The notes under the pieces were generated by a model. It did not search any database. It was given only the letters and a program-made list of their open reading frames with translations, and was not told the DNA's origin. This document shows, piece after piece, positions 2-54,095 of a DNA stretch of 64,000 bases; position 1 is the first letter of the stretch, and every line of letters starts with the position of its first letter. Position numbers and translations under genes: made by a program. The DNA is from Candidatus Nomurabacteria bacterium (GTDB taxonomy: Bacteria > Patescibacteriota > Dojkabacteria > SC72 > JAHDCA01), in assembly GCA_020632375.1 (NCBI GenBank), contig JACKFR010000001.1, positions 85,106 through 149,105 of the forward strand, in the 5' to 3' direction.

Positions 2-883
2 GATGTTCCAGTAATTTCTACAGGTGCATTGTCTTTAGATGTTGCCCTCGGAATTGGTGGTATCCCAAAGGGACGAATCGTAGAAATATATGGGCCTGAG
101 TCATCAGGTAAAACAACTCTTGCTATGCATATTTTGGCAGAGGCGCAAAAGATTGGTGAAAATGTAGCGTTTATTGACGCTGAGCATGCTTTTGACCCTA
201 CTTACGCTAAAAGAATTGGTATTGATATAAATGAGATGTATATTTCTCAACCCGATTTTGGGGAGCAGGCACTCGAGATTTTAGAAACCTTAGTAAGATC
301 AGCAGGATTCGGCGTAATTGTAGTTGATTCTGTAGCCGCTCTTACCCCCAGAGCCGAGATCGAAGGCGAAATGGGAGATAGCCATATGGGGTTGCAGGCA
401 AGACTGATGTCGCAAGCATTAAGAAAAATAACTGCAATTTGTAGTAAAACCGGCACAACTGTAATCTTTCTCAACCAGCTTCGTATGAAGATAGGAATTC
501 TTTTTGGTAATCCAGAAACCACGACAGGAGGTAATGCTCTTAAATTCTACGCCTCTGTCAGAATGGACATTCGCCAGCGAGAAAAAGTCATGGAAGATGG
601 TCAGCTGGTTGGACATGTGAGAAGCGTTAAGGTTGTAAAAAATAAGCTTGCCCCCCCATTTCGCGAGGCAAGTTTTGCAATTCGTTATCCAACAGGAATC
701 GACAAAGAGAGCAGCATAATCGATGCGGCAATAGAGAAAGGTATTGTGAAGAAGTCCGGCTCGTGGCTGAGTTACGGTGATAAACAGCTTGCCCAAGGAA
801 AAGATTCTTCTGCTCAAGCGCTAAAGGATGATTCGAAGCTTGCTAGAGAGATAACCAAAAAAGTTTTAGAGACGCTTAATTAG
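2..883 (+). CDS. recA: Recombinase RecA, 5' end outside window
   Basis: Frame is open from base 2 ([20 protein letters not shown]). Walker [10 protein letters not shown] and typical RecA core ([18 protein letters not shown]) present. Confidence 0.95.
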
Positions 884-900
884 TCGTTACTGAAAACGTA

Positions 901-1545
901 TTGAAAATTACTAAGATTACTTCTCAAATAAAAAAGCCGGGTAGGTTTAACGTTTTCCTTGATGAACAATTCTGGTTGGGAGTTTCCGCCGATACATTAG
1001 CCAGGTTTAAGCTGTATGACGGGCTGGAACTAAGCGATAATGATGCGAGTGAAATTACTAAAGCAGAAATTAGAAGTCGACTTATCGAAAGAGCTTACAC
1101 TTATGTCTCTCGTTCTATGAAGCCAAGAGCCAAAGTTCGAATGTATCTTAAAAATTTATTATTTAAAAAGAAGGGTGACTGGCTAGGTGATTTCAACGTG
1201 AAAAGTTTTGAGGAGACAATTGAAGAAATCCTTGATTCTCTCGAAAAGACAGGAGCTATTGACGATGCCGCTTTCGCAAAGTCTTTTGTAGAAATCAGAG
1301 CGAACAGAAAGCAGCGTTCACACTCTGTAATTATGAAAGAACTACTGCAAAAGGGTATCAACCGAGAAACCGCTGAAAATGCAATTTCTGATTCTGGATG
1401 CAGTGATCTCGAAATGTTAAAAACTTTGCTTACTAAAAAATATGGAAATATTGAGGTGGATTCAAAGGATAAAAAAAAGGTGAGGTATATACTTGGGAAA
1501 GGCTTCTCCTGGGAGATAATTTCACAGCTTACCGCTCATGACTAG
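901..1545 (+). CDS. recX: RecX-like regulatory protein
   Basis: Lies directly downstream of recA. 214 aa helical protein with RecX-like repeats (ERAYTYVSRSMKPRAKVRMYL). TTG start. Confidence 0.7.
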   Translation: MKITKITSQIKKPGRFNVFLDEQFWLGVSADTLARFKLYDGLELSDNDASEITKAEIRSRLIERAYTYVSRSMKPRAKVRMYLKNLLFKKKGDWLGDFNVKSFEETIEEILDSLEKTGAIDDAAFAKSFVEIRANRKQRSHSVIMKELLQKGINRETAENAISDSGCSDLEMLKTLLTKKYGNIEVDSKDKKKVRYILGKGFSWEIISQLTAHD

Positions 1546-3265
1546 AAAGAAAACAAGTGAATGGGTATTTCGCAATGAAAAGATTCATAAGCTCAAAGGT
1601 AAAAAGATAGCAGATGCAGTTCTAAGAGTTAGGGGAATAATTAAGCCTACAGATGTGAAGGCTTTTTTAAATCCTTCTATCGAGGATATTCAGGCATCAG
1701 GGGCAATTTACAATTCAGATGCTGCCGCTAAGCAAATAATTTCAGCACTTGAATCGAATAAAACAATATTTATTCATGGAGACTACGATTGTGACGGAAT
1801 TTGTGCTACAGCGATCTTGTGGGAGTGCCTTTATAAGGATGCTGCACAGAAAGTCGACTCTGAGTCGAAAATCGTGCCATATATTCCTAGAAGAATAGAC
1901 CAGGGATATGGATTAAGCGAATCATCGATTGATGAAATGGTTCAAGAAGGAGCAGACTTAATAATAACTGTTGATTGTGGGGTAAGAGACAAAGACTTGA
2001 TAAAAAGCTCGCTTAAAAGTAACCCCAATCTAGAATTTATAGTTACCGACCATCATTTACCTCCGGAAGACTTTACTGTTTCAAAAAATTATACGCTTGT
2101 CCATCAGCTGCACCCAAAACAGAAATATCTTCATTCGGAAATCTGCGGATCTACAATAGCCTTGTTGTTATCCACCACAGTCATGCATAAACTAGGAGGT
2201 TCAAAAAGGCTATCTCTTGATTCACCTGGATTAGATCTTGCTGCACTCGCGACAATAACCGATCTCATGCCTCTTACAGGAATTAACAGAACTTTAGTTC
2301 GATCCGGGATAGATTTAATTAATCGTTCTCCAAGAGAAGGATTTAAAGCCCTTATAAATATTGCGGGAATAAAAGAAGAAATAAATGAATACCATCTGGG
2401 GTATATAATTGGTCCAAGGATAAATGCTACGGGTCGTATAGGTGATCCACTCGAAGCACTCAGGCTTCTTCTTACCAGCTCTTCGGAAAATTCAAAGAAA
2501 TATGCAAGCAAAATAAATGATTTGAACTCAAAGCGACAAGAAGTTACAGAAGAGTATTTTAATTTTTCACTTGAGTCGATTAATGCTAGTTCTCAGGCTG
2601 AGCAATTGAACTTTGTAATTGGGGAAGATTGGCATGAAGGGGTAATCGGTTTGGTCGCAAACAAACTTACCGAATACTATTCACGACCATCAATTGTGAT
2701 TTCTAAAGGTGATGAGATTAAAGGATCCGCTAGAAGCATTGAAGGCGTTCATATGACTGGACTTCTGGAGCAATTTTCTGATTATCTCGTAAAATATGGG
2801 GGCCATGCACTTGCAGCGGGATTTACAGTTAAAAAAAATCGGTTTAGCAAGTTTAAGTCAGAGATCCTCGCGTGGGCTGATAAAAATATAGACCTTGAAT
2901 CGATCTCTAGAAAGCTAATGATAGATCTAGTACTCTCAATCGGGGAAATCTCTAAAGATGAAGTCAAACAGTTAGAATCATTGAGGCCGTTTGGAATGAA
3001 AAATCAGAAGCCGCTTTTTTTGCTATGCGGTGTTGTCATAAAGAATGTTTTTACGATGGGGCGCTTTAAAAATCACGTAAAGCTTATAGTAACAGATACC
3101 TCCGGTAAAGATCTCGAGTGTGTAATATTTGACTGTGAGGAAGATATTCCATTTCTTAAGACTGGTGAGATAGTGGATTTAGTTGGAACACTTTCGGTTA
3201 ATTCTTGGAATTCCTCAGAAACCTGTCAATTAGCTGTAAAAGAGTGGGATATTTCAGTATCATAG
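1538..3265 (+). CDS. recJ: Single-stranded-DNA-specific exonuclease RecJ
   Basis: DHH family motifs HGDYDCDG, ITVDCG, VTDHH and DHHA1 motif GGHALAAG. Overlaps the recX stop by 8 nt. Confidence 0.9.
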   Translation: MTRKKTSEWVFRNEKIHKLKGKKIADAVLRVRGIIKPTDVKAFLNPSIEDIQASGAIYNSDAAAKQIISALESNKTIFIHGDYDCDGICATAILWECLYKDAAQKVDSESKIVPYIPRRIDQGYGLSESSIDEMVQEGADLIITVDCGVRDKDLIKSSLKSNPNLEFIVTDHHLPPEDFTVSKNYTLVHQLHPKQKYLHSEICGSTIALLLSTTVMHKLGGSKRLSLDSPGLDLAALATITDLMPLTGINRTLVRSGIDLINRSPREGFKALINIAGIKEEINEYHLGYIIGPRINATGRIGDPLEALRLLLTSSSENSKKYASKINDLNSKRQEVTEEYFNFSLESINASSQAEQLNFVIGEDWHEGVIGLVANKLTEYYSRPSIVISKGDEIKGSARSIEGVHMTGLLEQFSDYLVKYGGHALAAGFTVKKNRFSKFKSEILAWADKNIDLESISRKLMIDLVLSIGEISKDEVKQLESLRPFGMKNQKPLFLLCGVVIKNVFTMGRFKNHVKLIVTDTSGKDLECVIFDCEEDIPFLKTGEIVDLVGTLSVNSWNSSETCQLAVKEWDISVS

Positions 3266-3421
3266 TTTCTGTACATCAGTCTCCCAATAAACTTTTTCTT
3301 CATCAAACCTTAACCTTAGCTTGCTAGGATCTCGATTTACTCATTTGCATAGGCTATAATTCGCATGAATTATATAGAAAACTATATATCCCGTAGTAAA
3401 TTGAAAGGTTATGGAAAGACT

Positions 3422-4105
3422 ATGAAAATATTATTAATAGAGGATGACGAAGTTATGTCAAAGTTTATTAAATTTGCACTTACTGGTGCTGGCTATTCAG
3501 TTGATCATGTAAAAAATGGAAATGTTGGACTTGAATTGGCAAGAGTCAATAGTGAAGTGTATGACATAATTGTTTTAGATGTGGTTTTACCTGGCTGTGA
3601 CGGGTTTGAAATTTGTAAAAGTCTGCGTGAAGAAAACAATAATGTCTTAATACTGATGCTTTCTGAAAGAGGCAGAACAGAGGATAAAGTAAAAGGGCTA
3701 AATGTTGGAGCTGACGACTACATGGCAAAACCGTTTAAGATCTCTGAACTTCTTGCAAGAATTAGAGCTTTACAGAGGCGGCAGACTGAGACTCTTCGAA
3801 ATCACAAGATTATTGTAAGAAACGTAGAGCTAGATCCTGATGGACAAGAAGTCTTTGTATCAGGCAAATTGATTGACTTAACACCTATCGAATTTAGAAT
3901 GCTAAGTCTGCTTATCAAAGAACGAGGAATAGTTCTTTCTCGTTCAATGATCATAGAAAAAGTATGGGATATTGAATCTGGCGATCTCTTTTCAAATTCT
4001 ATTAATGTACATATTAGGAGCTTAAGATGCAAAATTAACGATAGTAAGAAGAACCCCCTTATTATAACTGTTCGAGGGTCTGGGTATAAGTTTGCTACCG
4101 AATAA
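3422..4105 (+). CDS. OmpR/PhoB-family response regulator
   Basis: Receiver domain (MKILLIEDDE, DVVLPGCDG, KPF) plus winged-helix C-terminus (LTPIEFRMLSLL, VRGSGYKF). ATG at 3422 preferred over the upstream ATG at 3365. Confidence 0.9.
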   Translation: MKILLIEDDEVMSKFIKFALTGAGYSVDHVKNGNVGLELARVNSEVYDIIVLDVVLPGCDGFEICKSLREENNNVLILMLSERGRTEDKVKGLNVGADDYMAKPFKISELLARIRALQRRQTETLRNHKIIVRNVELDPDGQEVFVSGKLIDLTPIEFRMLSLLIKERGIVLSRSMIIEKVWDIESGDLFSNSINVHIRSLRCKINDSKKNPLIITVRGSGYKFATE

Positions 4106-4126
4106 ACTGTCATTAAAGAATTATTC

Positions 4127-6472
4127 ATGACAGAGAATAAACATATCTCTAAGAGAAATAAAGCTCCAAAGGGTGAAGTAAAAAACAAAAATGCAAAGGG
4201 TCATGTAAAGAAGTTACAAACCCGATTACATGATTTGGAAAACAAATATAATGCATTGATGTCTGCGACGCCAGATATGATGTTTTTGCTCGATGCAAAG
4301 GGAAACTATCTCGATTATTTCCCAAGTAAGGACGCTACTGCAGCACTCCCATCAGAATATTTTATTGGCAATAATGTAGCCGACATAATGCCATCTGAAC
4401 TTGCGAATCGATATATTGCCCTAATTAAGACTGTTTTAGATAGTGATCGAGTCGAGTATGTCCAGTATGCACTTACCGATCCCAATGGAGAGAGATTCTT
4501 TGAAGCAAGACTTGTTAAGTGTACTAACAAGTCAGTGCTGATCATTGTAAGAGATATTACCGATGTCAATGAGGCTGAGGCAAAGCTTCGGCTAAAAGAA
4601 GAACACTACAAACATCTCATTGATGAAATCCCTTGTGGGGTTTTTACGGGCGATACTGAGAGTAATATTTTGGACGCAAACCCCTACGGTTGCAAAATGC
4701 TAGGATATGAGTTATCAGAATTAAAATCGATATCTGCGCGAAAACTTTTCCCTCTATCAAACAAAGCTTTTGACGAGATTATGAAAAAAGGAAAGCTTAT
4801 AAATCATGAAGCTGTTTTACGCCATAAGAACGGTGCTGAGATCTATGTTTCTATAAATGCGATTCTTGAAAAAGAAAATGACTCTCTGAATATAAGTGCG
4901 ATTGTAAATGATGAGACTGAGAAAAGAATCCTTGAAAAAGAGAAAGCTAGAGTGCGCCAACAGATGGATAAGTCTTTGAAAATAAGAGAAGACTTTTTAG
5001 CAAAAGTTAGCCATGAGATAAGAACTCCTTTAAATGCGATTGTTGGTGCAAACGAGTTATTATCAGGTACGAAAATGAGTTCAAAGCAGAAGGAATATAC
5101 TTCGATCATGAGCATTGCTACAAATGATCTTCTTTCGCTTATTGACGAGTTGTTACATTTTTCACAAATTCATATAGGTAAGGTGAAACTTCAAAATGCT
5201 CCATTTCGCATCACCAATCTAATAGAGAGTATTGAAACAGCTGAAGCACCCGAAGCGAAAAAGAAGGGGTTAGAGATTGAGTTTGAGTGCGACAACAATA
5301 TTCCAGAGTGGATTTACGGTGATAGAACAAAACTAAAGATAATTTTAAACAATTTAATTGGGAATGCGATTAAATTCACAACAAAAGGCTCTGTTAAAGT
5401 TGCCGTTTGGCTTAGCGAAAATCAAGGTGATAAAGTAGAGCTTCTTTTTTCGGTAAAAGACACTGGTAGAGGGATTCCAAAATTAAAACAAAAAGATATT
5501 TTTAAAAGCTTTGTTCAGCTTGAAGATAATACAATCTCAAGAGAGAAAGGGATTGGTCTCGGACTTTCAATTGTTAAGAAACTTGTAAACACAATGAACG
5601 GAGAAGTCGAGATCAATAGCAAGGTAGGTGTCGGAACAGAATTTAGTGTTCTACTCAAATTCGATCTACCAGAGGATTACCACAAAGTCGAAAAGCCCAC
5701 TAAGCTGAGCTCACCTTATAATTTTGAGAAGCTTAAGTTTCTTATTGTCGAAGATAATGAACTTAATCTTAAAATTACTGAAGATATCTTAAAGGATGTC
5801 GGAGCTGAAGTAATCTTGGCAACCTCTGGGAAAAAAGCTCTTAAGGAGTTAGAGAAAAATCGTTTTGACTTTATACTTCTTGATCTTGAGCTGCCTGATA
5901 TCCACGGCTTTGACATTTTGCGATATATCAGGACATCAGAAAAAAGAACAATGCGTTCTACTCAAGTCATTGTCGTGACAGCACATTTTTATGCAGGTCA
6001 GAAAGATAAAGTTTTTCTTGCAGGGGGGAATGATCATATAGCTAAGCCTTTTCGTCCAGAAATTTTATATAAAAAAATAAAAAAACTTCAGAAGGCGAGA
6101 AGAAGTCTTGATAAAAATGGTATTGATTTCAGAAATCTTGACGAGGCGGTTTCCTCCAGTGAAGCAGTTAAAGTTGAAATTATTAAGACATTTATCCAAC
6201 AAACCTCACAAGCTCTGATGTCAATGAAATCTGCTTATAAGAAAGCAGATTCTGACAAGATTTGCAAAATAGCACATAAGGTAAAGCCTTCAGCGTACTA
6301 TATAAGTATTCCTGGATTTCTATCTTACTTAAAAAAGATCGAAAATTCATGTGGACGTCCGGTTGATGAAAAAAAACTAAAAGAACTTATATACTCAGCT
6401 GACGGTTTATTTAAAGCAAGTCTCGGTGTACTCTCAATTGAGTTATATAAACATGACATGACAAGATCCTGA
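4127..6472 (+). CDS. Hybrid sensor histidine kinase (PAS-PAS-HisKA-HATPase-REC-HPt)
   Basis: H-box SHEIRTPLNAI, N-box NLIGNAIKFT, G-boxes DTGRGI and GIGLGLSIV. Receiver domain (LIVEDNELN, DLELPDIHG). C-terminal HPt-like helix (IAHKVKPSA). Confidence 0.9.
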   Translation: MTENKHISKRNKAPKGEVKNKNAKGHVKKLQTRLHDLENKYNALMSATPDMMFLLDAKGNYLDYFPSKDATAALPSEYFIGNNVADIMPSELANRYIALIKTVLDSDRVEYVQYALTDPNGERFFEARLVKCTNKSVLIIVRDITDVNEAEAKLRLKEEHYKHLIDEIPCGVFTGDTESNILDANPYGCKMLGYELSELKSISARKLFPLSNKAFDEIMKKGKLINHEAVLRHKNGAEIYVSINAILEKENDSLNISAIVNDETEKRILEKEKARVRQQMDKSLKIREDFLAKVSHEIRTPLNAIVGANELLSGTKMSSKQKEYTSIMSIATNDLLSLIDELLHFSQIHIGKVKLQNAPFRITNLIESIETAEAPEAKKKGLEIEFECDNNIPEWIYGDRTKLKIILNNLIGNAIKFTTKGSVKVAVWLSENQGDKVELLFSVKDTGRGIPKLKQKDIFKSFVQLEDNTISREKGIGLGLSIVKKLVNTMNGEVEINSKVGVGTEFSVLLKFDLPEDYHKVEKPTKLSSPYNFEKLKFLIVEDNELNLKITEDILKDVGAEVILATSGKKALKELEKNRFDFILLDLELPDIHGFDILRYIRTSEKRTMRSTQVIVVTAHFYAGQKDKVFLAGGNDHIAKPFRPEILYKKIKKLQKARRSLDKNGIDFRNLDEAVSSSEAVKVEIIKTFIQQTSQALMSMKSAYKKADSDKICKIAHKVKPSAYYISIPGFLSYLKKIENSCGRPVDEKKLKELIYSADGLFKASLGVLSIELYKHDMTRS

Positions 6473-6682: not shown

Positions 6683-8923
6683 ATGGAAGTAAAACAAAGA
6701 GTTTTGGCGTCTGAAGTTCCGGCAAAAATTGGTGAAAAAGTAAAAGTGTCTGGATGGGTAGCTACTTTGCGTGATCACGGCAAACTTATCTTTATTGACA
6801 TGAGAGACTGGTCAGGAATTATTCAACTGGTTGTGAACTATGAAAATAAAGAAATTGTTGAGATTGCGAAAAGCCTTGGTAGTGAATTTGTAATAGAAGC
6901 CGAAGGAACTGTTGTCAAAAGAGAAGAGGATCTGGTCAATGATAAAATACCTACAGGGGGTGTAGAGATTAAGCTCGAAAAGCTGACTCTTTTAAACAGA
7001 TCTAAGCCAATTCCCTTTCCTCTTGATACTGATGGGCATGAGATTGATGAGAGTCTTCGATTGAAGTACCGTTTTATTGACATGCGCCGAGACAGGGTCA
7101 AACAGATCATGCAGAAAAAGCATAAACTTATTCTTGGCGTTAGGAACTGGATGAGTAAGAATGGATTCACTGAGGTAATAACTCCTCTCTTGACCAGCAC
7201 TTCTCCTGAAGGTGCACGAGATTATTTTATTCCTTCTCGTATTCACCGCGGCAAGTTTTTTGTATTACCTCAAGCACCTCAGCAGTATAAGCAGCTTCTA
7301 ATGGTTGGAGGAGTTGATCGCTATTTTCAAATTGCACCATGCGCTCGTGACGAAGATCCAAGAGCAGACCGCCATGCGGGAGTATTTTATCAAATAGATA
7401 TCGAGATAAGCTTCCCAACAATAGATACAATATTTGATGTATGTGAGAGAATGCTTCGTGATACTTATACTTTGGTAGCACCTGAAAAAAAGATACTTCA
7501 GGTTCCGTTTCCTCGCTTAACTCATAAAGATGCAATTGAAAAATATGGCACTGACAAACCAGATACCAGATTCGGGATGTTGATAAATGATATAACCGAG
7601 ATTGTCAAAGGAAAGACTGATTTCCAGGTGTTTAACTCTGCAGAAAGTGTCAAATGCATAGTTGTCGAAGGAGCGGGTGAGTGGTCTCGCACAAAGATTG
7701 AAGATCTAGAAAAGTTTGCAAAAGAACAAGGTGCAAAAGGTCTTGCATATTGCAAGGTTGACTCAGGTAAGCTTGAGTCAGGAATTGGGAAATTCATTTC
7801 AAGTCTATCTGAAGAAATTATCACTCAGATAGAAGCTAAAAACGGCGATTTGATACTTTTTGCCGCCGACCAAAATGAAAAAGCTTGTAAGATCCTTGGT
7901 ACAGTAAGATCAAGGTTGGGACAAGAGTTGGGTCTTTTAGACGAGAGCGTACTCTCTTTTGTTTGGATCACCGATTTCCCTTTTTACGAAATTGATGAAA
8001 AGACGGGCAAACTTGACTTTGCTCATAATCCTTTCTCAATGCCGCAGGGAGGATTAGATGCATTTGATGTCGATGATCCTCTTAAGATACAGACTAACCA
8101 GTATGACCTCGCATTAAACGGATATGAAATACTTTCTGGGTCAATTCGAAACCACGATCCTGAAGTCTTGGTTAAAGCTTTTGAAACAGTCGGGTATGGT
8201 CGTGAAGAAATTCTTAGACGGTTTGGAGGTTTATATGAAGCATTCCAGTATGGTGCGCCGCCACACGGGGGCTGGGCTATCGGGATTGATAGGCTTTTTA
8301 TGGTTTTAATAGACGAGCCAAATATTCGTGATACTTACGCTTTCCCCAAAAACTCTAACGGTATGGATCTAATGATGAATGCACCTAGCGAGGCAAGCCC
8401 AGAAGATCTTGATATACTTGGGATAGAGCTTTCTGATAAAGGCTCATCAACAGTTACTAAGATTCATAACTTACTTGATAAAGCTGGTGTTGAGTACAAA
8501 TTCTTAGAGCATGAGCCAGTAAAAACTTCTGCAGAATCCGCAAAAGTTAGGGGGACTCAGCTTGGAGATGGCGCAAAAGCAATGGTTATTAAGTCTCTCG
8601 AATACAGCGATAAATACAAGATGGTAGTGATTCCCGCAGATGCCCAGCTTGATCTAGATAAAGTGACCCAAAATCTTGGTGAGAAATATAAAGTAGCTTC
8701 ACCTGAAGAAGTAGAAAAGCTGATTGGGATACAGGTCGGCGGGGTTCCTCCATTCGGTCGCCTTCTCGGTTTAGATCTATATTTCGACTCTTCAATGTGG
8801 GAAAAAGAAACCTCAGCATTTAACTGTGGTAGGAGAGATCGATCGATCGTTATGAAAACAAAAGATCTTATTGAGCTTGCAGAGCCGGATGCTAAATCGA
8901 TAAAATTTGACTTCAAAGCCTAA
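6683..8923 (+). CDS. aspS: Aspartyl-tRNA synthetase fused to a C-terminal YbaK/ProX-type aminoacyl-tRNA editing domain
   Basis: Class IIb motifs (FYQIDIE, RADRHAG, GGWAIGIDRL) through about aa 585. About 159 extra residues follow (8444-8920) with YbaK-like signatures (GAKAMVIK, GGVPPFG). Total 746 aa. Confidence 0.9.
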   Translation: MEVKQRVLASEVPAKIGEKVKVSGWVATLRDHGKLIFIDMRDWSGIIQLVVNYENKEIVEIAKSLGSEFVIEAEGTVVKREEDLVNDKIPTGGVEIKLEKLTLLNRSKPIPFPLDTDGHEIDESLRLKYRFIDMRRDRVKQIMQKKHKLILGVRNWMSKNGFTEVITPLLTSTSPEGARDYFIPSRIHRGKFFVLPQAPQQYKQLLMVGGVDRYFQIAPCARDEDPRADRHAGVFYQIDIEISFPTIDTIFDVCERMLRDTYTLVAPEKKILQVPFPRLTHKDAIEKYGTDKPDTRFGMLINDITEIVKGKTDFQVFNSAESVKCIVVEGAGEWSRTKIEDLEKFAKEQGAKGLAYCKVDSGKLESGIGKFISSLSEEIITQIEAKNGDLILFAADQNEKACKILGTVRSRLGQELGLLDESVLSFVWITDFPFYEIDEKTGKLDFAHNPFSMPQGGLDAFDVDDPLKIQTNQYDLALNGYEILSGSIRNHDPEVLVKAFETVGYGREEILRRFGGLYEAFQYGAPPHGGWAIGIDRLFMVLIDEPNIRDTYAFPKNSNGMDLMMNAPSEASPEDLDILGIELSDKGSSTVTKIHNLLDKAGVEYKFLEHEPVKTSAESAKVRGTQLGDGAKAMVIKSLEYSDKYKMVVIPADAQLDLDKVTQNLGEKYKVASPEEVEKLIGIQVGGVPPFGRLLGLDLYFDSSMWEKETSAFNCGRRDRSIVMKTKDLIELAEPDAKSIKFDFKA

Positions 8924-13009: not shown

Positions 13010-13050
13010 TATGGCGTGTTGTTTTTTTGCAGGGTATAATTCCCAATTAT

Positions 13051-13121
13051 TGCCGGATCGTCTAACGGTAGGACAGCGGTCTCTGGAACCGCCAATCCTG
13101 GTTCGAATCCAGGTCCGGCAA
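13051..13121 (+). tRNA. tRNA-Gln (anticodon CTG)
   Basis: Hand-folded cloverleaf. Acceptor TGCCGGA/TCCGGCA, D arm GTCT/GGAC, anticodon arm GCGGT-CTCTGGA-ACCGC, T arm CCTGG-TTCGAAT-CCAGG. CCA not encoded. Confidence 0.9.
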
Positions 13122-13428
13122 TGTGGCACTGCGTCCGAAGGATTAACACAATAAATAGCTGAACTAATCTGTACTCCAAAGAGATAGCTCTGAAAGAACT
13201 AATCGCTTCATTTCAAAGCTCTTTTACTATGATATACCTTTGTCCCCTAACCTTTTAAATAATATCTATTTTATAGAAGGCCTAAATAAAAAAGTCCGAG
13301 TCAGAGAAGACAGTTTTGGGTTTGTGTAAATCTGGGAATCTGAGTGCTGATTTGTAAGCATCTAGGAGGTTCGAATGATGATTTCTTGTATACCGATATA
13401 GTCGGTAATAATTTAATTTCAACTATAT

Positions 13429-14028
13429 GTGTCCAAAGTACACCATGTAATTATAATTCCTGGGCTTGGAGATGAAATAGGCAAAATTACATGGGCAACA
13501 AATTTCTGGAGTCGCTTTGGCCTTAATCCGACTGTTCATTCGGTTGGCTGGCATACCAGAGAAAAGGAATTCCGACCAAAGCTACAAATTTTAATTGATA
13601 TAGTTGACACATTTGCTGACAAAGGAGACAGGGTCTCTTTGGTCGGTTGCTCTGCTGGAGGTAGCGCTGCGCTTAATACATTTTTTGAACGCAGAGAAAC
13701 AGTACATCGAGTAATCAATATTTGTGGCCGTTTAAGAACCGGGACACAAAATGGATTCCGTTCTTTTAATGTGAGAACTGCAACCAGCCCTACTTTTTCT
13801 GAGTCAGTAAAACTTTTCGAGAGCAATGAAAACTTGTTAACCAGTCAAGATAAACAAAAAATAATGACTGTAAGACCGTTGTTTGGCGATGAACTTGTTC
13901 CCGCGGACACAATAATACTTCGTGATGCTTATAACATAACGATTCCAACACCGGAGCATGTATTCAGTATTGCTATGGCATTAACTGCATTTTCAAAACC
14001 ATTAATCACATTTCTGACAAAAGAATAA
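13429..14028 (+). CDS. Alpha/beta-fold hydrolase (esterase/lipase-like)
   Basis: Nucleophile elbow GCSAGG (GxSxG) after a beta-strand. N-terminal HHVIIIPGLG oxyanion-type motif. GTG start. Confidence 0.6.
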   Translation: MSKVHHVIIIPGLGDEIGKITWATNFWSRFGLNPTVHSVGWHTREKEFRPKLQILIDIVDTFADKGDRVSLVGCSAGGSAALNTFFERRETVHRVINICGRLRTGTQNGFRSFNVRTATSPTFSESVKLFESNENLLTSQDKQKIMTVRPLFGDELVPADTIILRDAYNITIPTPEHVFSIAMALTAFSKPLITFLTKE

Positions 14029-14140
14029 AAATAAGAAACACTTTGCATATATTTGTCTAATATATCCTTTATATACGAGGTATTGTTTGACCTCGTCCAT
14101 CCTTTATCATAGACTGAAAAATAAATTGAGTAATTTAAGC

Positions 14141-14902
14141 ATGGACAAATTTAGAAAGCTTCGTACATATAATTTTGTAATGGGGTCGTTTCATTTAGTT
14201 CAAGCAGTTGCCATGTACCTTCTTAGCAACGACTTCAAGCTACCTGTTACCACGGCTTATCTTCAGTTTGATAAGCAAGCAAACGCTTTACTTCCTGTAC
14301 TTAAAGAAGTGGCTCAAGTCAGGATTGCTCCTCTAGTCGCCTTATTTCTGCTTATGTCTGCATTTGCCCATTATATTTTGACCCTGCCAGGTGTATATGA
14401 TTGGTATGTAAAGAATCTAAAGAAAGGTGCAAACTATGCCAGATGGTACGAGTATGCACTTAGTTCTTCATTAATGATTGTTTTGATAGCAATGCTTGTT
14501 GGTATGTATGACATGAGTAGTCTTATCCTGATCTTTTCACTCAATGCAATGATGATTCTTTTTGGTTTGATGATGGAGCTTCATAATCAGGTTACCCAGA
14601 AAACTAACTGGACTTCGTTTTTGTTTGGCTCTATCGCTGGGATTGTTCCTTGGATCACAATAGCATTATATTTGATGGGATCCGGTAGCGGAGATAGTAA
14701 AGCGCCAGACTTTGTCTACTGGATCTTTTTCTCTATTTTCCTATTCTTCAATACATTTGCTTTAAATATGTTTCTTCAGTATAAGAAGATCGGAAAGTGG
14801 AAAGACTATCTTTGGGGAGAAAAAATGTATATTCTACTTAGCCTGCTAGCAAAATCAGCACTTGCATGGCAGATCTTTGCAGGAACCTTGAGACCAGTCT
14901 AA
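14141..14902 (+). CDS. Heliorhodopsin (7-TM retinal protein, inverted topology family)
   Basis: Family signatures along the full length: GSFHLVQ, SAFAHYIL, RWYEYALSSSLMIVLIA, GSIAGIVPWI, FFSIFLFFNTFAL. Schiff-base lysine context LSLLAKSALAWQIFAGTL. ATG at 14141 preferred over TTG at 14087. Confidence 0.9.
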   Translation: MDKFRKLRTYNFVMGSFHLVQAVAMYLLSNDFKLPVTTAYLQFDKQANALLPVLKEVAQVRIAPLVALFLLMSAFAHYILTLPGVYDWYVKNLKKGANYARWYEYALSSSLMIVLIAMLVGMYDMSSLILIFSLNAMMILFGLMMELHNQVTQKTNWTSFLFGSIAGIVPWITIALYLMGSGSGDSKAPDFVYWIFFSIFLFFNTFALNMFLQYKKIGKWKDYLWGEKMYILLSLLAKSALAWQIFAGTLRPV

Positions 14903-14993
14903 GGAGAAATCCTCACATTATCTGCTGAGACTTTACAAGTTGCTTGTTGTTACATATTATGTACAAGCTTAATATATTTCAGTTATATCTACT

Positions 14994-15257
14994 ATGCAAA
15001 GAGGTGTAATTGCATTAACAAGTGATGATATCAAAATGCTAAGTCAGATAGTCGAAATGAATTTAGATTCGTTTCCACAAACACTTGTAACTAAACTCCA
15101 AGCTGCTTCAGACATGGCTGAACCTGAAATTAGGTTAGAGCTTTCGGAAGAAGAGTCCGAATCACTTCTAGATTTGATCGATTTCAATCCTGATGACAAA
15201 AAAACAACCTCTTTAAGAGGTAAAATACAAGATTTTGTAGCCGGATTAAGAAACTAG
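14994..15257 (+). CDS. Hypothetical small acidic protein
   Basis: 87-aa ORF downstream of the heliorhodopsin gene. No motif recognised. Confidence 0.45.
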   Translation: MQRGVIALTSDDIKMLSQIVEMNLDSFPQTLVTKLQAASDMAEPEIRLELSEEESESLLDLIDFNPDDKKTTSLRGKIQDFVAGLRN

Positions 15258-15790
15258 AGTATCTTTATCCCCGTAAATTCACGAAACTGTTTGAGTGCTT
15301 CATCGTATCCCAATCCACTAGATACAGCGAGTTCGCTAACTAGATGGTCAATAGATGTCTTTACATACTTTACAATACTTACTGGGATAAGGCGTCCCTC
15401 TTTTTCACGAGTTCGCATCTCGTGATTACAATATTGGATTATTTCAATAAATGCATCAACCTCTCCACGTGTATCGAGGTCTCTAATTACTTCAATTAGC
15501 TCATTATAATTTCTTACCGCCGGCTTTGAGATAGGTCTGGATTTCAGAACTTTTATCTTGCCTAGAATATAGTCAGGCAGCCTAACCGGTCTGATACCAA
15601 GAGTGTCTAGATTCTGAACTGGAGTAGAAATTGTCAGCTTTTTGTTTATAAAACTGAACTCGAAATACTTTTTCTTTTCACCTCCAAATTCAATTACTTT
15701 CTCTTTGATAATCTTGCCAGCTCCGTGTGATGGGTAGAAAATCTTTGATTCTACGCCGATATTTCTAACAGAAGAGTCAACAGATGCCAT
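15254..15790 (-). CDS. CarD/CdnL-family RNA-polymerase-binding transcription regulator
   Basis: N-terminal CarD_CdnL_TRCF-like segment IFYPSHGAGKIIKEKVIEFGGEKKKYFEFSF. Confidence 0.75.
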   Translation of the reverse strand: MASVDSSVRNIGVESKIFYPSHGAGKIIKEKVIEFGGEKKKYFEFSFINKKLTISTPVQNLDTLGIRPVRLPDYILGKIKVLKSRPISKPAVRNYNELIEVIRDLDTRGEVDAFIEIIQYCNHEMRTREKEGRLIPVSIVKYVKTSIDHLVSELAVSSGLGYDEALKQFREFTGIKIL

Positions 15791-15921: not shown

Positions 15922-16335
15922 TTAAACTTTTTCAATTAATTCGTCTAACACGCCAGCGAGTTCATGTAGTTCTGGAGAAAATGCAACCTCATCTATGACA
16001 TCATCTAAAGCTTTAGGGAATTTAGAGACAGCGTCGTTAGGGATTATATGAAAATGTGCATGTGGAACTTCTTCACCGACAGTAAGTGAGTACACTAATT
16101 CATTTCCACTGGTTTTTTGTAAATGCTTTGCAACCTTTTGACAAAGCTCAAAAAATTGAGCTGCTTCCTCTTTTGGAATATCCCAGATCCATCGGTGGTG
16201 TTTCTTAGGAATAACAAGGGAATGCCCTTTGGTGTAGGGCCTAATATTTAAAAATGCAATAGCTGATTCATTCTCAAAAAGAATGAATGCGGGTAGTTTT
16301 TTAGATACGATTTTGCAAAAGACACATTCTTCCAT
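15922..16335 (-). CDS. HIT-family nucleotide hydrolase/transferase
   Basis: Histidine triad HAHFHIIP. N-terminal CVFCKI motif. Confidence 0.85.
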   Translation of the reverse strand: MEECVFCKIVSKKLPAFILFENESAIAFLNIRPYTKGHSLVIPKKHHRWIWDIPKEEAAQFFELCQKVAKHLQKTSGNELVYSLTVGEEVPHAHFHIIPNDAVSKFPKALDDVIDEVAFSPELHELAGVLDELIEKV

Positions 16336-17913: not shown

Positions 17914-19326
17914 ATGCTTGAAAAATTTTTTAAACCAATTGCTGCTCCAGAGACGAAAAGAGAGATGCTTCTTCAGAGGCAAATCTCAATAATAAAAGAG
18001 ATTTCAGGGATTCTTGTCTCGGGGGCAGGTTTATCTGAATCGCTTGAAAAGGTCCTTGACTTAGTGCCTTCGCTCATTGAAAACGACCTGAATTATGTCG
18101 GGGTCCTTATCCTTGATGGTGTAAGTAGGGAAGAATATAGTTTTCGGATAGTCAAAAGCACGATGCCGATCCAGGTAGAAAAGATGCTTAAACTTTTTAC
18201 TGGCCTAGATGTTGCTGATATGCCTTATAGGGTGAAAGACCCTCAGAGTATTTTTGTGAGATCCGTTGTAAATAAAGAGATTGCTTATACTCGGAATTTG
18301 TATGAAAGCTTCTTGCCATTAATGCCAAATAAATATGCGGATCGTCTCGACCCTGTTATCTCTCAGATTGTAAAACTTCTAATTTCTGTCCCAATGGTTG
18401 TTGACGATGAGTGTCTAGGGGTGATAGGCATAGGATGGAGAACTCAAAGTATTTCAGAATCAGATCTGATGCTTTTGCAAACGTTTGCAAACCAAGCCGC
18501 GGTTGCAATTTATAGCTCACGCTTGTTAGAAAATATAAAAAATGAAGTTTCAAAGAAAGAGAAAGCACTTAATCGTGTAAAAGAAACACTGAGATATGAA
18601 CGAGATATGTTAGATATTCTTGCACACGAGTTAAGAACCCCGCTTACAATAATGAAGAATGCGGTGTCAATTGAACAAGATGAGATCAATCGTACAGGAT
18701 TAGACAGAGAAAAGCTTAAAAAATTTAACCAGATTGCAAATGACGCGCTTACCAGAGAAGTTGAGACTCTGGATACGATTTTAGCTGCGACGAGAATAGC
18801 AAAAGATAGATTTGAAAACCGACCAGAGCCTGTAGACCTTAGCAAGCTGATAGAAGACTCAATTGATAATCACCGCGGTTTAGCACTAGAGAAAAATATC
18901 TCAATTGAAATGGAGATAGAAGAAAAGATCACTCTTTTTATAGATAAGATCGCTTTAGTTCAGATAATTAATAACCTGATAAGCAATGCCATTAAGTATA
19001 CAAACATCGGTTCTGTCACGCTTTTAACCAAAACTAAAGGTAACAGTGTGTATATTGAAATTAGAGACACGGGAATCGGCATCCCGAAAGAAGAAATCCC
19101 GAATCTTGGGGAAAAATTCTATAGAGTCAACAGTTATATTTCGTCATCAAGTGCAGAAGACAATAAAATAATTCGCGCCGGAGGAACCGGATTAGGCTTG
19201 TATGTCGTTATGAATCTTTTAAAAACATTAGGAGGGGAAATCAGTTTTAAGAGTGTCTTAAATAAAGGTACAACTGTGACTATAAAATTGCCAATAAAAG
19301 CAAGCAGAAAGAGAATATCTAATTAA
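17914..19326 (+). CDS. GAF-domain sensor histidine kinase
   Basis: H-box LAHELRTPLT, N-box NLISNAIKYT, G-boxes DTGIGI and GTGLGLYVV. N-terminal GAF-like region (GVIGIGW). Confidence 0.85.
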   Translation: MLEKFFKPIAAPETKREMLLQRQISIIKEISGILVSGAGLSESLEKVLDLVPSLIENDLNYVGVLILDGVSREEYSFRIVKSTMPIQVEKMLKLFTGLDVADMPYRVKDPQSIFVRSVVNKEIAYTRNLYESFLPLMPNKYADRLDPVISQIVKLLISVPMVVDDECLGVIGIGWRTQSISESDLMLLQTFANQAAVAIYSSRLLENIKNEVSKKEKALNRVKETLRYERDMLDILAHELRTPLTIMKNAVSIEQDEINRTGLDREKLKKFNQIANDALTREVETLDTILAATRIAKDRFENRPEPVDLSKLIEDSIDNHRGLALEKNISIEMEIEEKITLFIDKIALVQIINNLISNAIKYTNIGSVTLLTKTKGNSVYIEIRDTGIGIPKEEIPNLGEKFYRVNSYISSSSAEDNKIIRAGGTGLGLYVVMNLLKTLGGEISFKSVLNKGTTVTIKLPIKASRKRISN

Positions 19327-19343
19327 AATATGATTAAGACTCT

Positions 19344-19721
19344 TTGAAAAAGCACATTCTTATTGTAGATGATGAGCCAACAATACAAATGCTTTATAAA
19401 TACATATTGGAAACCGCAGGGTACGATGTTTCAATAGCGAGTACCGGTCAAGAGTGTTTGGAAAGACTTATATCGGATAAACCTGATCTCATTCTTCTTG
19501 ATTTAATGATGCCAGATATGAATGGAGTCGATGTCGCAAAAGAGATCCGTACTAAACCTGGAAAATATGGTAATCCGGCTATCGTTATCCTGACAGCCTA
19601 TCTTGGTGAGAATGCCCGAGAAAAGGCTTCTCAAAAGTGGGTCGATGGGTATGTCACCAAGACAGAAGTTATCAATCAGGAGCTGGTTGATGAAGTAGAG
19701 AGGTATTTATCCGACAGGTGA
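19344..19721 (+). CDS. Single-domain (CheY-like) response regulator
   Basis: ILIVDDEPT, LILLDLMMPDMNG, and a conserved T/K region. TTG start 18 nt after the kinase stop. Confidence 0.85.
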   Translation: MKKHILIVDDEPTIQMLYKYILETAGYDVSIASTGQECLERLISDKPDLILLDLMMPDMNGVDVAKEIRTKPGKYGNPAIVILTAYLGENAREKASQKWVDGYVTKTEVINQELVDEVERYLSDR

Positions 19722-21060: not shown

Positions 21061-21794
21061 GGATCTAGGCCGGTTTAGAGTGGACTTTTTTCTAAACTCT
21101 TTCATAAAGCGTATCATAAATTTCTCCTCTGTGATTCCATCGCCATTCAGACTCTTTTAGGTGAAAATTAAACATCTCGTCTGTCAAACCATTAAATTTA
21201 GCTAAACGCCTTTTGGTAAAGCTCCAGAAGCTCTCAATACCGTTTACATGTGCCTTGCCTCTAACAAATTCATCTTTACTGTGATACACACGGTAGTGAT
21301 CATATCCATTCAAAATTAGTCCGTCATAACTCTTCCAACCATCTGAATATATTGTTGATCCTTCTAGCACTTTACCCTCAATTATTGGCATAAGTTGTTC
21401 TTTCCTGCAATTCTTGACTACATTTACAAATACTTTACTATCTCGTTTTAGAATACCGAATACAGGGGTTTTACCTTCTGCTCCACGACTTTTTTCCCTC
21501 TAACTCTTTTAGCTCCAAAATATGATTCATCTACTTCAAACTTACCAAGTTCTGCTGTTGAAGCAAGTGATATCTCGACTATTCTTTGCGTCATTAATTT
21601 GAATAATCTGTTGATTGTATTTCTATTCACCCCTGAGTATCTGGCTGTTTTAGAGGCTGTCTCATCTTCTGAAAAATACTTCAAAATCTCTCTGAATTTA
21701 CGCTCCGAAATGTGTGCTCTGTTTAGATACTTGTTTTTCATTCTCTAAGACTAAAATATTTAAAGGTTAAGCACCTCTAAACGAGTCTAGACCC
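21061..21794 (-). mobile_element. IS1595-family insertion sequence (about 734 bp) with imperfect terminal inverted repeats
   Basis: GGATCTAGGCCGGTTTAGAGTGG (21061-21083) matches the reverse complement of 21771-21794 (GGGTCTAGACTCGTTTAGAGGTGC) at about 17-18 of 24 positions. These flank the transposase reading frames. Confidence 0.7.
21092..21741 (-). pseudogene. IS1595-family (ISXO2-like DDE) transposase split by a frameshift
   Basis: N-terminal frame 21741-21448 and C-terminal frame 21391-21092 (STIYSDGWKSYDGL, HVNGIESFWSFTKRRL). The third frame bridges them (KSRGAEGKTPVFGILKRDSKVFVNVVKNCRKEQLMPIIEG). Shift lies at the A6 run (T6 on the + strand, 21490-21495). Confidence 0.8.
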
Positions 21795-37119: not shown

Positions 37120-37782
37120 CTACCAGTCAATTGGTTCTTTATCATTTAGGATAAGAAACTTATTAGCTTTACTGAAGTGACTACTGCCAAAAAAACCGTT
37201 ATGTGCTGAAAATGGCGATGGGTGAGCTGAACGTAGTATATAGTGCTTCTCTTCATCTATCATGGAGCCCTTTTTCTGTGCGTAAGCTCCCCACAACATA
37301 AATACAAGCCCATCTCTTTTTTCTGATAGTACTTTAATGACAGCATCGGTAAATTCTTCCCAACCTTTATTTTGATGTGATCCTGGACTTTTTGCTCTTA
37401 CGGTTAATGTCGCATTAAGTAGCAGAACTCCCTGTCTTGCCCATCTTTCAAGATTTCCTGATTCTGGAGATTTTTTACCAAGATCGTCTTCAACCTCTTT
37501 AAATATATTTTTTAGTGAAGGAGGCATCGCGACTCCATCTGCTACAGAAAAGCAGAGACCATTTGCCTGACCGATACCGTGGTAAGGGTCTTGTCCTATT
37601 ATTACGACTTTAACCTCTTCAAATGGTGCGAATTCAAAAGCTCTAAAGATTTCCTTCGGCGGGGGGTACACTGTTTGGCTTTTATATTCTCTTTTTACAA
37701 AACCGACCAGCTCCTTGAAGTAAGGCTTTTTGAACTCTTCTGTCAAATACGGTTTCCAAGTTTTGTCTATTCTTACATCCAT
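37120..37782 (-). CDS. ung: Uracil-DNA glycosylase, family 1
   Basis: VVIIGQDPYHG, GLCFSV, LLLNATLTV and HPSPFSA motifs. Confidence 0.9.
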   Translation of the reverse strand: MDVRIDKTWKPYLTEEFKKPYFKELVGFVKREYKSQTVYPPPKEIFRAFEFAPFEEVKVVIIGQDPYHGIGQANGLCFSVADGVAMPPSLKNIFKEVEDDLGKKSPESGNLERWARQGVLLLNATLTVRAKSPGSHQNKGWEEFTDAVIKVLSEKRDGLVFMLWGAYAQKKGSMIDEEKHYILRSAHPSPFSAHNGFFGSSHFSKANKFLILNDKEPIDW

Positions 37783-49261: not shown

Positions 49262-49945
49262 ATGTCGTACAACCTTGATTCACTTCAACTGACCTCTTTG
49301 TTTAGCGATTTCGATATTCTTCAGAGTCAGCATGGTGCAAGCCGCTATAACGCCATATATGGTGCCGGCGAAATCCAAAAACCAAAAATCTGTCTTGTGT
49401 TTATGAACCCAACCGCAAGAAATGTTTCTGCATCTCAGGACTGGGACGGGATCCGTGCGCCATGGGTAGGTACCAAAAATATCTGGAAAATGTTCTATCA
49501 ACTGGGAATTTTTACTAATTATGAGATAGTTCAGAAAATTGAAAAGATAAAGCCAGATGAATGGACTCCAGATTTCGCTTATGACCTATACAGCGAAGTA
49601 GCTAAAGAATCAATCTATATAACTAACATTGCCAAGTGTACCCAAGAAGACGCACGACATGTTAAGAACGACGTATATAAAGACTATCGGGACTTGATGC
49701 TCCAAGAACTTGACGAAATTCAGCCTGAAGCTACTTTTGCGTTTGGAAACCAGGTAAGCTCAGTCTTGCTTGGGCGTAATATTTCAGTGTCTAATTATAC
49801 CGGAGAATCTGACGAGATTCTTTCAACTAAGCAATATTCTCATAAGATCTACCCGACATATTATCCAGTAGGGCAAGGGAGAAGAAATATTAGCAAATCC
49901 ATAGAAAGAATAAATGCAGTTTTAAGAATAGAATCAGTTGACTAA
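49262..49945 (+). CDS. Uracil-DNA glycosylase superfamily protein with divergent motif A
   Basis: ICLVFMNPTARN resembles the G(I/M)NPG motif A of MUG/SMUG-type UDGs. IYITNIAKC and FAFGNQV follow the UDG-fold pattern. Motif B is not the canonical HPS. Confidence 0.5.
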   Translation: MSYNLDSLQLTSLFSDFDILQSQHGASRYNAIYGAGEIQKPKICLVFMNPTARNVSASQDWDGIRAPWVGTKNIWKMFYQLGIFTNYEIVQKIEKIKPDEWTPDFAYDLYSEVAKESIYITNIAKCTQEDARHVKNDVYKDYRDLMLQELDEIQPEATFAFGNQVSSVLLGRNISVSNYTGESDEILSTKQYSHKIYPTYYPVGQGRRNISKSIERINAVLRIESVD

Positions 49946-52979: not shown

Positions 52980-53651
52980 ATGTCTTCATTATATCCTCTT
53001 ACCAAAAAACAGAAAGAAGTTCTCAGGCTTATCGAAAAAAGTATCGATAAGCACGGCTTTGCTCCATCTCTGGGAGAAATGCTTTCAGATCTTGGGTTCT
53101 CTTCAAAGCGAAGCGTGACTTTTCATTTAGAAGCGCTCGAACGAAAAGGATATATCACCAGAACTGGCCAGGCTAGAGGAATATATTTAAATACTCCGTC
53201 TAACGGTCAATTCTTTTCGGTTCCTCTTGTTGGTTTTGCCAATGCTGGATTACCGATGGTTATTGCAGAAGAAGGTGATTATGGTGAGATCACTGTTGAC
53301 AAGAAACTTCTGAATAGAAAAAGAAAAGTTTTTGGTTTAGAACTTCGCGGAGACTCTATGGATAAGCGTTTTTTGAATGGTATACCCCTGAGTAACGGCA
53401 ATTATGTAATAGTCTCGAAAGATTCAGAGTATAAAAACGGAGACGTTGTTCTTGCCGTGATCGATAATGCGGCAACAATAAAGTCTTTTAAGAGAGAAAA
53501 AGATAGAATTGTGCTTTACCCGGAATCTTCCAATAAGCGGCATCATCCGATATATATTCGCTCTGATGGGGAAGCTATGATTACAGGGAAAGTTTTAACA
53601 GCACTTTCTAATCCTCGAACCAAGCAGATCACTGACACTAGTAAGAGCTAA
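52980..53651 (+). CDS. lexA: LexA repressor (wHTH plus S24 autopeptidase)
   Basis: N-terminal LTKKQKEVLRLIEKSIDKHGFAPSLGEM wHTH. Cleavage-site context VGFANAGLP (Ala-Gly). Catalytic Ser in RGDSM and Lys in ATIKSF. Confidence 0.9.
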   Translation: MSSLYPLTKKQKEVLRLIEKSIDKHGFAPSLGEMLSDLGFSSKRSVTFHLEALERKGYITRTGQARGIYLNTPSNGQFFSVPLVGFANAGLPMVIAEEGDYGEITVDKKLLNRKRKVFGLELRGDSMDKRFLNGIPLSNGNYVIVSKDSEYKNGDVVLAVIDNAATIKSFKREKDRIVLYPESSNKRHHPIYIRSDGEAMITGKVLTALSNPRTKQITDTSKS

Positions 53652-53673
53652 TTTTATATATTGCTTAATTATT

Positions 53674-54084
53674 ATGTCTGGGTTTCTTGCACATTCGCAG
53701 TCTATTCCTCTTTTTTCTTCTACTGTTTCTGCAGGATTTCCTAATACCGCAGAAGATATGGTTGAGCAGGGATTAAACCTTCATGAACATTTAGTTAAGA
53801 AGCCTGCGGCGACATATTTTCTTCGGGTTTGTGGGAATTCAATGATAAATGCCGGGATCCATTCTGGAGACCTGCTTATTGTTGATCGCTCCCTTGAGCC
53901 TAAAGACGGCAATGTTGTAATCGCAAGTCTTGATCGGGAGTTTACTGTGAAAAGGCTCCGTTTTTCTGGCGGTAAGTATTGCCTGTATCCAGAGAACCCT
54001 GCATATAAACCAATCTTTCTTGATCAAACCAATGATATTGAGGTCTGGGGTGTTGTAATTAGTGTAATTCACTCTTTAATTTAG
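53674..54084 (+). CDS. umuD: UmuD-like S24 peptidase subunit of translesion polymerase V
   Basis: Collinear with E. coli UmuD. VSAGFPNTAEDMVEQ (cleavage region), ATYFLRVCGNSMINAGIHSGDLLIVD (Ser), EFTVKRL (Lys). Confidence 0.85.
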   Translation: MSGFLAHSQSIPLFSSTVSAGFPNTAEDMVEQGLNLHEHLVKKPAATYFLRVCGNSMINAGIHSGDLLIVDRSLEPKDGNVVIASLDREFTVKRLRFSGGKYCLYPENPAYKPIFLDQTNDIEVWGVVISVIHSLI

Positions 54085-54095
54085 GCTCTCAAGCT

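Follow-up and report, generated by a model that had tools for sequence, protein, structure and literature searches.

A window of 64,000 nucleotides from contig JACKFR010000001.1 (positions 85,106 to 149,105; assembly GCA_020632375.1, Candidatus Nomurabacteria bacterium) carries a genuine, intact heliorhodopsin (HeR) gene in a bacterium of the Patescibacteria, or Candidate Phyla Radiation (CPR). In our view the gene likely encodes a canonical and functional heliorhodopsin of the prokaryotic, TaHeR-like clade: a non-pumping photosensor that uses scavenged retinal and whose partner is not encoded next to it. What the analysis adds is negative evidence, namely that no partner gene is conserved beside the heliorhodopsin in this clade. 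The gene itself matters little once correctly annotated; it is one more uncharacterised member of a family with thousands of known sequences.

An intact heliorhodopsin gene under purifying selection

The mechanically called open reading frame (ORF) opens at a TTG at position 14087, while an ATG at 14141 leads to a stop at 14902 and a product of 253 amino acids. Since aligned relatives share this length (nearly all have 253 residues, range 248–258) and the same start position, we placed the start at the ATG rather than at the TTG. The initial annotation had recognised a heliorhodopsin over the whole length of the protein and had proposed a Pfam search as a check. Using profile hidden Markov models (HMMs), we obtained full-profile matches to Pfam PF18761 (Heliorhodopsin; E value 2e-101, 338.9 bits against a cut-off of 26.7, profile positions 1–242 of 242) and to the NCBIfam equivalog NF038020, ‘heliorhodopsin HeR’ (352.6 bits against a cut-off of 100, positions 1–244 of 244). 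Heliorhodopsin was the sole Pfam family found in the protein at E ≤ 0.01, with no match to Bac_rhodopsin. Sequence matches in the PDB also ran from end to end, to TaHeR (6IS6; E 6e-83) and to 48C12 (6SU3/9LJJ; E 4e-64). The motifs that had been quoted for the assignment (GSFHLVQ, SAFAHYIL, RWYEYALSSS, GSIAGIVPWI, FFSIFLFFNTFAL and LSLLAKSALAWQIFAGTL) are all found in the translation. The family is large: more than 7,400 of the 8,000 candidates examined were homologues at E ≤ 1e-20.

The protein itself is already known. GenBank holds an identical 253-residue sequence as ‘heliorhodopsin HeR’ of Candidatus Nomurabacteria bacterium (MCB9790481.1). A published survey found 98 heliorhodopsins in 1,326 CPR genomes, 7 of them in Dojkabacteria (Chiriac et al. 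2022, PMC9166423), and the gene context of heliorhodopsins, those of Patescibacteria included, has been analysed (Bulzu et al. 2021, PMC8612252). The novelty that the initial annotation implied is absent: GenBank already names the protein, and it has been published that heliorhodopsin hosts in general lack blh.

A near-identical metagenome-assembled genome (MAG; GCA_020429345.1, 99.3–99.6% DNA identity) is labelled Candidatus Dojkabacteria bacterium, and those nearest relatives that have a taxon name are mostly labelled Dojkabacteria or WS6. In a scan of genome contigs, the closest heliorhodopsin of a GTDB representative was only 69% identical. The public labels of the two near-identical MAGs are in conflict (Nomurabacteria versus Dojkabacteria), but under both of them the host belongs to the CPR. 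In the second of them (L090, JAGQLM010000016.1), a run of Ns at 844–900 breaks the heliorhodopsin gene, hence no gene was called there.

Residue numbers were carried over through HMMER pairwise alignments to 48C12 and TaHeR, and conservation was judged on an alignment of 34 relatives, on which the AlphaFold2 model was also built. The residues that had been picked out as the Schiff-base lysine in the seventh transmembrane helix (TM7), the glutamate counterion and the histidine pair all align with their counterparts in the two solved proteins (Table 1). K238 belongs to an SxxxK motif (S234-L-L-A-K238), is invariant across the 34 relatives and sits inside the last helix of the model (residues 224–249). 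N98, W102, Y105 and W171 are likewise conserved. The catalytic-type residues named here do not vary among the 34 relatives. The residues of the lateral fenestration between TM5 and TM6 map onto F162/C166/G169/F206/N207/A210 of 48C12. All six positions conform to a published motif (opposing aromatics, small residues, glycine) that is reported in 91% of heliorhodopsins (bioRxiv 10.1101/2025.11.27.691015).

The AlphaFold2 model (predicted local distance difference test (pLDDT) 80; predicted template modelling score (pTM) 0.77) has helices at residues 2–28, 62–79, 99–120, 125–151, 157–180, 190–214 and 224–249. Extracellular loop 1 (ECL1) forms a long beta-hairpin at 33–61, with strands at 33–44 and 49–61. 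In Foldseek, the model matched 6is6 with a template modelling score of 0.89 (root-mean-square deviation 2.4 Å) and 6su3 with 0.85, whereas the best-ranked structure from outside the family scored 0.58. As modelled, the seven-helix heliorhodopsin fold is intact together with its chromophore pocket and access fenestration. Lysines and arginines number 14 on the side of the N-terminus and the intracellular loops and 6 on the opposite side, a count that fits the predicted cytoplasmic N-terminus of the inverted family topology. Structures of type-1 rhodopsins scored 0.49–0.64 against the model at 8–15% identity. A type-1 microbial rhodopsin was ruled out by these scores of at most 0.64, by the lack of a Bac_rhodopsin match and by the SxxxK motif in place of DxxxK.

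Among characterised proteins, TaHeR from the Thermoplasmatales archaeon SG8-52-1 (6IS6, 7CLJ, 7U55) is of the same length class and 55% identical over 246 residues. The equivalents of K238, E104, H18, H77, S234, G167, F203, N204, A207 and M210 are all matched. The two proteins differ in their hosts, one archaeal and the other bacterial, and at the fenestration, where TaHeR has Y164 and C168 and the window protein F160 and S164. The prototype 48C12 (6SU3, 6UH3, 9LJJ) is 48% identical. Its K241, E107, H23, H80, S76, S237, N101, W105, Y108 and W173 are matched, and its F162, G169, F206, N207 and A210 are identical in the window protein, which differs in having A106 for S109, M210 for Q213, S164 for C166 and a shorter ECL3. 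The published CPR heliorhodopsins (PMC9166423) share family, host group and SxxxK class with it; their commonest motifs are SLVAK, SLIAK and SFVAK, compared with SLLAK here.

Purifying selection on the gene is strong. In the comparison with the ortholog of a sister lineage (L001; 86% identical), the proportion of nonsynonymous differences (pN) was 0.083 and that of synonymous differences (pS) 0.83, the latter being saturated, which gives a pN/pS of about 0.1. A second sample from the window's own population (L091) differs at 10 nucleotides and 1 amino acid. With a GC content of 0.382, the gene equals the window mean (0.388) and thus bears no compositional sign of recent import.

Chromophore supply and candidate functions

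We analysed 61 ORFs of the window with Pfam, comprising all main ORFs of at least about 97 amino acids and an 87-amino-acid ORF downstream of the heliorhodopsin gene. In agreement with the initial annotation, which had seen no crt- or blh-like genes in the 64 kb, none of the 61 matched SQS_PSY, polyprenyl_synt, Amino_oxidase, Lycopene_cyc, BCD or RPE65. Other ORFs shorter than about 97 amino acids lay outside the scan, and the small, heterodimeric cyclase subunits of the CrtYc/CrtYd type (about 100 amino acids) are thus only marginally covered. Twelve ORFs had no Pfam match; none of them encodes a polytopic membrane protein, which leaves no place among them for a divergent Blh.

This situation has precedents. 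The blh gene is rare near heliorhodopsins, co-occurring mostly where another rhodopsin is present (Chazan et al., bioRxiv 2021.02.16.431466), and CPR rhodopsin hosts lack it (Jaffe et al. 2022, PMC9296517). The host of TaHeR is likewise described as having no retinal pathway, and the apoprotein as taking up retinal fast through the opening, in the account that PMC9296517 gives of Shihoya et al. 2019. The rhodopsins of Saccharibacteria (SacRs; PMC9296517) are also CPR retinal proteins in hosts without blh, with retinal thought to come from neighbours or hosts. They differ in being type-1 outward proton pumps of the opposite orientation, whereas the window protein has no type-1 signature. Given that the scan of the window turned up no genes for carotenoids or retinal, and that blh is generally missing from CPR hosts of rhodopsins, the most likely source of the chromophore is scavenging, either from the environment or from a host cell, with entry through the TM5/TM6 fenestration. 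The external supply that the initial annotation had presumed is accordingly the likely situation.

By analogy with characterised members of the family, the N-terminus would lie in the cytoplasm, and all-trans-retinal would be bound at K238 with E104 as the counterion. The protein would absorb green light and pass through a slow, non-transporting photocycle, and as a photosensor it may use its lysine-rich cytoplasmic loops to contact a partner protein directly and alter the partner's activity. Other heliorhodopsins regulate glutamine synthetase, photolyase and an ABC exporter in a light-dependent manner (PMC11109279), so the statement in the initial annotation that heliorhodopsin function is still unresolved holds only in part and is otherwise outdated. 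These regulatory proteins (the exporter is OmrDE) belong to the same family, and the window protein shares their Lys/Arg-rich cytoplasmic loops. They differ in their context, in that none of the ten recurrent partners is conserved beside the window gene and its adjacent hydrolase belongs to a separate, CPR-specific family.

Several points weigh against a TaHeR-like photosensor fed by scavenged retinal. Retinal binding, absorption, photocycle and non-transport are extrapolated from proteins of 55% and 48% identity, and regulation by protein contact is proposed by analogy only. A role as xanthophyll antenna or in fatty-acid photochemistry is conceivable instead. The 64 kb scanned make up less than one-third of a 219,684-bp contig, itself part of a genome, and a retinal pathway may lie elsewhere in that genome. 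Finally, carotenoid self-supply exists among close relatives. Among 89 other heliorhodopsin loci, crt genes were found within 10 kb of the heliorhodopsin in a single lineage (L007/L009; GC 0.44), whose heliorhodopsin is 72% identical to that of the window. A CrtI-like oxidase, a phytoene synthase and a lycopene cyclase lie 4–7 kb downstream of it (L007 14250–17200, equal to L009 9005–11955); the phytoene synthase gene (crtB) is split by an in-frame stop, and blh was not found in the locus. Between the heliorhodopsin and the crt genes, this lineage has a Na/Ca exchanger, MGMT, MsrA and an M20 peptidase.

The protein might instead be a light harvester with an exogenous xanthophyll antenna at the fenestration, or a light-dependent actor on membrane fatty acids; we regard this as unlikely, though not negligible. 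CPR cells are thought to have no outer membrane, and its absence would expose the fenestration site to outside lipids. Solved heliorhodopsins do bind lipids at the fenestration (bioRxiv 2021.02.16.431466), and the window protein has the full motif found in most of the family. The antenna, however, was proposed in a preprint from docking and sequence motifs, not from spectroscopy of energy transfer, and it would still require an output. As for the fatty acids, the neighbours that motivated the idea (DUF2177, DegV and DUF1295) are absent from the 61 window ORFs scanned with Pfam.

The variable slot and the remaining alternatives

The heliorhodopsin gene is cargo of a variable slot that follows a tRNA-Gln gene. 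A backbone common to the window, the sister lineage L001 and a further relative, L094, consists of a 434-amino-acid gene (minus strand), the glutamyl-tRNA synthetase (GluRS) gene and tRNA-Gln before the slot, and a small ORF (the 87-amino-acid one in the window) and a CarD-like gene (minus strand) after it. The slot extends over 13123–14990 in the window, where it holds a hydrolase gene and the heliorhodopsin gene; over 4889–10000 in L001, with eight genes (DUF6602, MazG-like, HD and others) and the heliorhodopsin; and over 3336–4430 in L094, with a Schlafen/AlbA gene and a 49-amino-acid ORF and no heliorhodopsin. No integrase was seen, and a search on either side of the slot for att-like repeats copying the 3′ end of tRNA-Gln in direct orientation found none, so that nothing points to an integrative element.

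Using tBLASTn with 12 window proteins against the 89 loci, and clustering 621 ORFs that lie within 4 kb of a heliorhodopsin at 86 loci, we found no conserved heliorhodopsin partner; the largest neighbour family occurs at 6 of the 86 loci. With no partner gene conserved across this heliorhodopsin clade, genomic context will not predict the function here, and insight into it has to be sought by expression and by the search for partners. The window does contain a GAF-domain histidine kinase and a single-domain response regulator (17914–19721), in line with a published finding that two-component genes are enriched up to 10 kb from heliorhodopsins (Bulzu et al. 2021, PMC8612252). The pair is absent from L001, and kinases occur in just 7 of the 89 loci.

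Neighbour families of this clade include MsrA, at 5 of the 86 loci, and a photolyase-like gene, at 4. MsrA was seen within about 2 kb of the heliorhodopsin in five lineages (L007 12054–12623, L008 6659–7198, L025 8835–9353, L065 and L037), twice accompanied by an MGMT-type DNA_binding_1 gene. The MsrA and photolyase links agree with a published association with oxidative and photo-damage; neither gene is near the heliorhodopsin of the window.

The same loci bear on whether the heliorhodopsin and its neighbours work together as a functional unit, which we hold to be very improbable. The hydrolase encoded upstream would act, for example, by freeing retinal or xanthophyll from esters, and/or the 87-amino-acid protein downstream would serve as cytoplasmic partner or transducer. 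The three genes share a strand and are separated by just 112 and 91 nt, the small ORF follows the heliorhodopsin in the sister lineage too, and its acidic product could bind the lysine-rich loops. In addition, ‘alpha/beta hydrolase’ is one of ten recurrent groups of helR neighbours, in Dehalococcoides, Methanobacterium, Nocardioides and Knoellia (Cho et al. 2024, PMC11109279). However, the family of the window hydrolase was found at 0 of the 89 loci by tBLASTn and, the same population aside, beside no other heliorhodopsin with a family profile HMM run against 3,315 ORFs; in the sister lineage, the place before the heliorhodopsin is taken by an HD-domain gene. The three other members of the small-ORF family that were located (in L092, L094 and L095) have no heliorhodopsin nearby, the CarD-like partner being kept in L094, and promoter-like sites lie in both spacers of the window. 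The initial annotation had suggested examining the hydrolase, heliorhodopsin and small-ORF neighbourhood in related genomes; it is not conserved beyond the one sister lineage, and the three-gene arrangement appears to be an accident of the variable slot.

We give an equally low probability to a scenario in which the heliorhodopsin is horizontally exchanged slot cargo of an episymbiotic, Dojkabacteria-type lineage, with retinal (perhaps xanthophyll) drawn from a host or neighbour and the hydrolase freeing the chromophore from esters. If this were true, light sensing would depend on, and report, contact with a pigment-producing partner.

It is extremely unlikely that the protein is a light-driven proton transporter like the viral V2HeR3, supplying a proton gradient to a fermentative cell. 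CPR cells have few routes to such a gradient (PMC9296517), and some heliorhodopsins are cited as transporting protons (in bioRxiv 10.1101/2025.11.27.691015 and PMC11109279). Yet transport has so far been found only in a viral subfamily that lacks the fenestration motif, whereas the window protein has the motif and falls, at 55% identity, in the TaHeR clade. For the solved members of this clade, TaHeR and 48C12, no transport is known.

We give almost no credence to a decaying or chromophore-less relic, gained by horizontal transfer into the slot and non-functional: the region behind the tRNA gene is variable, a relative with the same backbone has no heliorhodopsin and no chromophore pathway lies nearby, but the frame is open throughout, no pocket residue has been lost, pN/pS against the sister is about 0.1 with a single replacement among the ten population differences, and the GC content gives no hint of recent arrival.

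Neighbouring genes and other features of the window

Table 1. Coordinates of the heliorhodopsin gene, its key residues and the adjacent features in the window
Feature	Coordinates	Strand	Remarks
tRNA-Gln(CUG)	13050..13122	+	Left edge of the slot with hydrolase and heliorhodopsin
Minimal alpha/beta hydrolase, 199 aa	13429..14028	+	CPR-wide family; no Pfam or NCBIfam model
Promoter-like TTGACC-17-TAGACT	14087..14115	+	26 nt upstream of the heliorhodopsin ATG; 9/12 matches to consensus
Heliorhodopsin coding sequence	14141..14902	+	253 aa and stop; evidence from Pfam, NCBIfam, PDB, model, selection and GenBank match
H18, histidine pair, codon CAT	14192..14194	+	H23 in both 48C12 and TaHeR; invariant
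S73, pocket			48C12 S76, TaHeR S78
H77, histidine pair, codon CAT	14369..14371	+	48C12 H80, TaHeR H82; invariant
E104, counterion, helix 3, codon GAG	14450..14452	+	TaHeR E108, 48C12 E107; invariant
TM5/TM6 lateral-fenestration motif (retinal/carotenoid access)	14618..14761	+	F160, S164, G167, F203, N204, A207
S234, SxxxK motif			48C12 S237, TaHeR S234
K238, Schiff-base lysine, codon AAA	14852..14854	+	SLLAK; TaHeR K238, 48C12 K241; invariant
Nested AT-rich inverted repeats, spacer between heliorhodopsin and 87-aa ORF	14935..14968	.	Overlap promoter-like TTTACA-17-TATTAT (14932-14960)
Acidic protein, 87 aa	14994..15257	+	Small conserved family; backbone, with convergent CarD-like gene
Protein of 178 aa with N-terminal CarD_TRCF_RID domain	15254..15790	-	Convergent with the 87-aa ORF, 4-nt overlap

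The gene upstream of the heliorhodopsin had been called an alpha/beta hydrolase, and its predicted fold, structural matches and invariant residues agree with this. Its family is lid-less and CPR-wide, with 214 homologues of about 200 amino acids in which G73-x-S75-x-G77, D154 and H177 (Ser75/Asp154/His177) are invariant. The AlphaFold model of the protein (pLDDT 93) matched solely esterases and lipases in Foldseek, the best being LipS, FphH and monoglyceride lipases. The sequence had no match in Pfam, and searches of the PDB and NCBIfam gave sub-threshold matches only. A promoter-like site lies in the spacer between the hydrolase and the heliorhodopsin (Table 1), and the heliorhodopsin gene seems to stand as a separate unit that may have a promoter of its own; in the consensus scan, such sites were no more numerous in the region than in shuffled sequence.

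The 87-amino-acid ORF is a real gene. In GenBank it is MCB9790482.1, the accession after that of the heliorhodopsin, and it shares 49% identity with an ortholog of the same length in L001, with a ratio of nonsynonymous to synonymous substitution rates (dN/dS) of 0.29. The protein is acidic, as had been noted (17 Asp and Glu against 9 Lys and Arg; isoelectric point 4.3), but it is not the orphan it was labelled as. Besides the sister ortholog, its small family has 12 representative clusters at 32–41% identity, with members of 84–96 amino acids and the pattern MxRG...LELSEEE...LLD...SLR...LR, and is tied to the CarD-like gene rather than to the heliorhodopsin. Sequence searches of the PDB and NCBIfam returned sub-threshold matches only. 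The CarD-like gene is also paired with the small ORF in L001 and L094. Because L094 keeps the pair on the shared GluRS/tRNA-Gln backbone without a heliorhodopsin, the small ORF belongs with the CarD-like gene, and the two may form a functional pair. The small ORF and CarD-like locus lies at 4431–5256 in L094 and at 6001–6837 in L095; in the latter, a 173-amino-acid minus-strand gene occupies the CarD-like position and has no match to the CarD-like protein of the window.

The AT-rich nested inverted repeats described in the initial annotation are present in the spacer before this ORF, with arms ACAAG/CTTGT at 14935–14947, TACATA-T-TATGTA at 14951–14963 and GCTTGT/ACAAGC at 14942–14968. A role as terminator or as regulatory hairpin was rejected: 67 of 200 dinucleotide shuffles folded at least as stably as the spacer RNA is predicted to (−14 kcal/mol; z = −0.47), no intrinsic terminator was called after the heliorhodopsin gene, and the shorter spacer of L001 is not alignable across that stretch. 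Further downstream, a HIT gene (15922–16335) is absent from L001.

Elsewhere in the window, a second two-component system (3365–6472) consists of an OmpR-type regulator and a PAS-PAS hybrid histidine kinase, which makes two such systems in 64 kb of a reduced genome. The aspartyl-tRNA synthetase (746 amino acids, 6683–8923, plus strand) carries a C-terminal PF04073 tRNA_edit domain of the YbaK/ProX type at residues 610–732, a fusion that is unusual for this enzyme and is also found in L001. A region on the minus strand (21092–21741) is probably a degraded insertion sequence; a 99-amino-acid ORF there matches the DDE transposase domain of IS1595 (ISXO2-like) over the C-terminal half alone, and a 97-amino-acid ORF with no Pfam match lies just upstream of it. 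DNA-damage genes are abundant in the window (52980–55376; 37120–37782; 49262–49945; 29–3265). They include LexA, a UmuD-like S24 peptidase and UmuC (a Y-family polymerase) in a row, two genes of the uracil-DNA glycosylase (UDG) superfamily, and RecA, RecX and RecJ at the start of the window.

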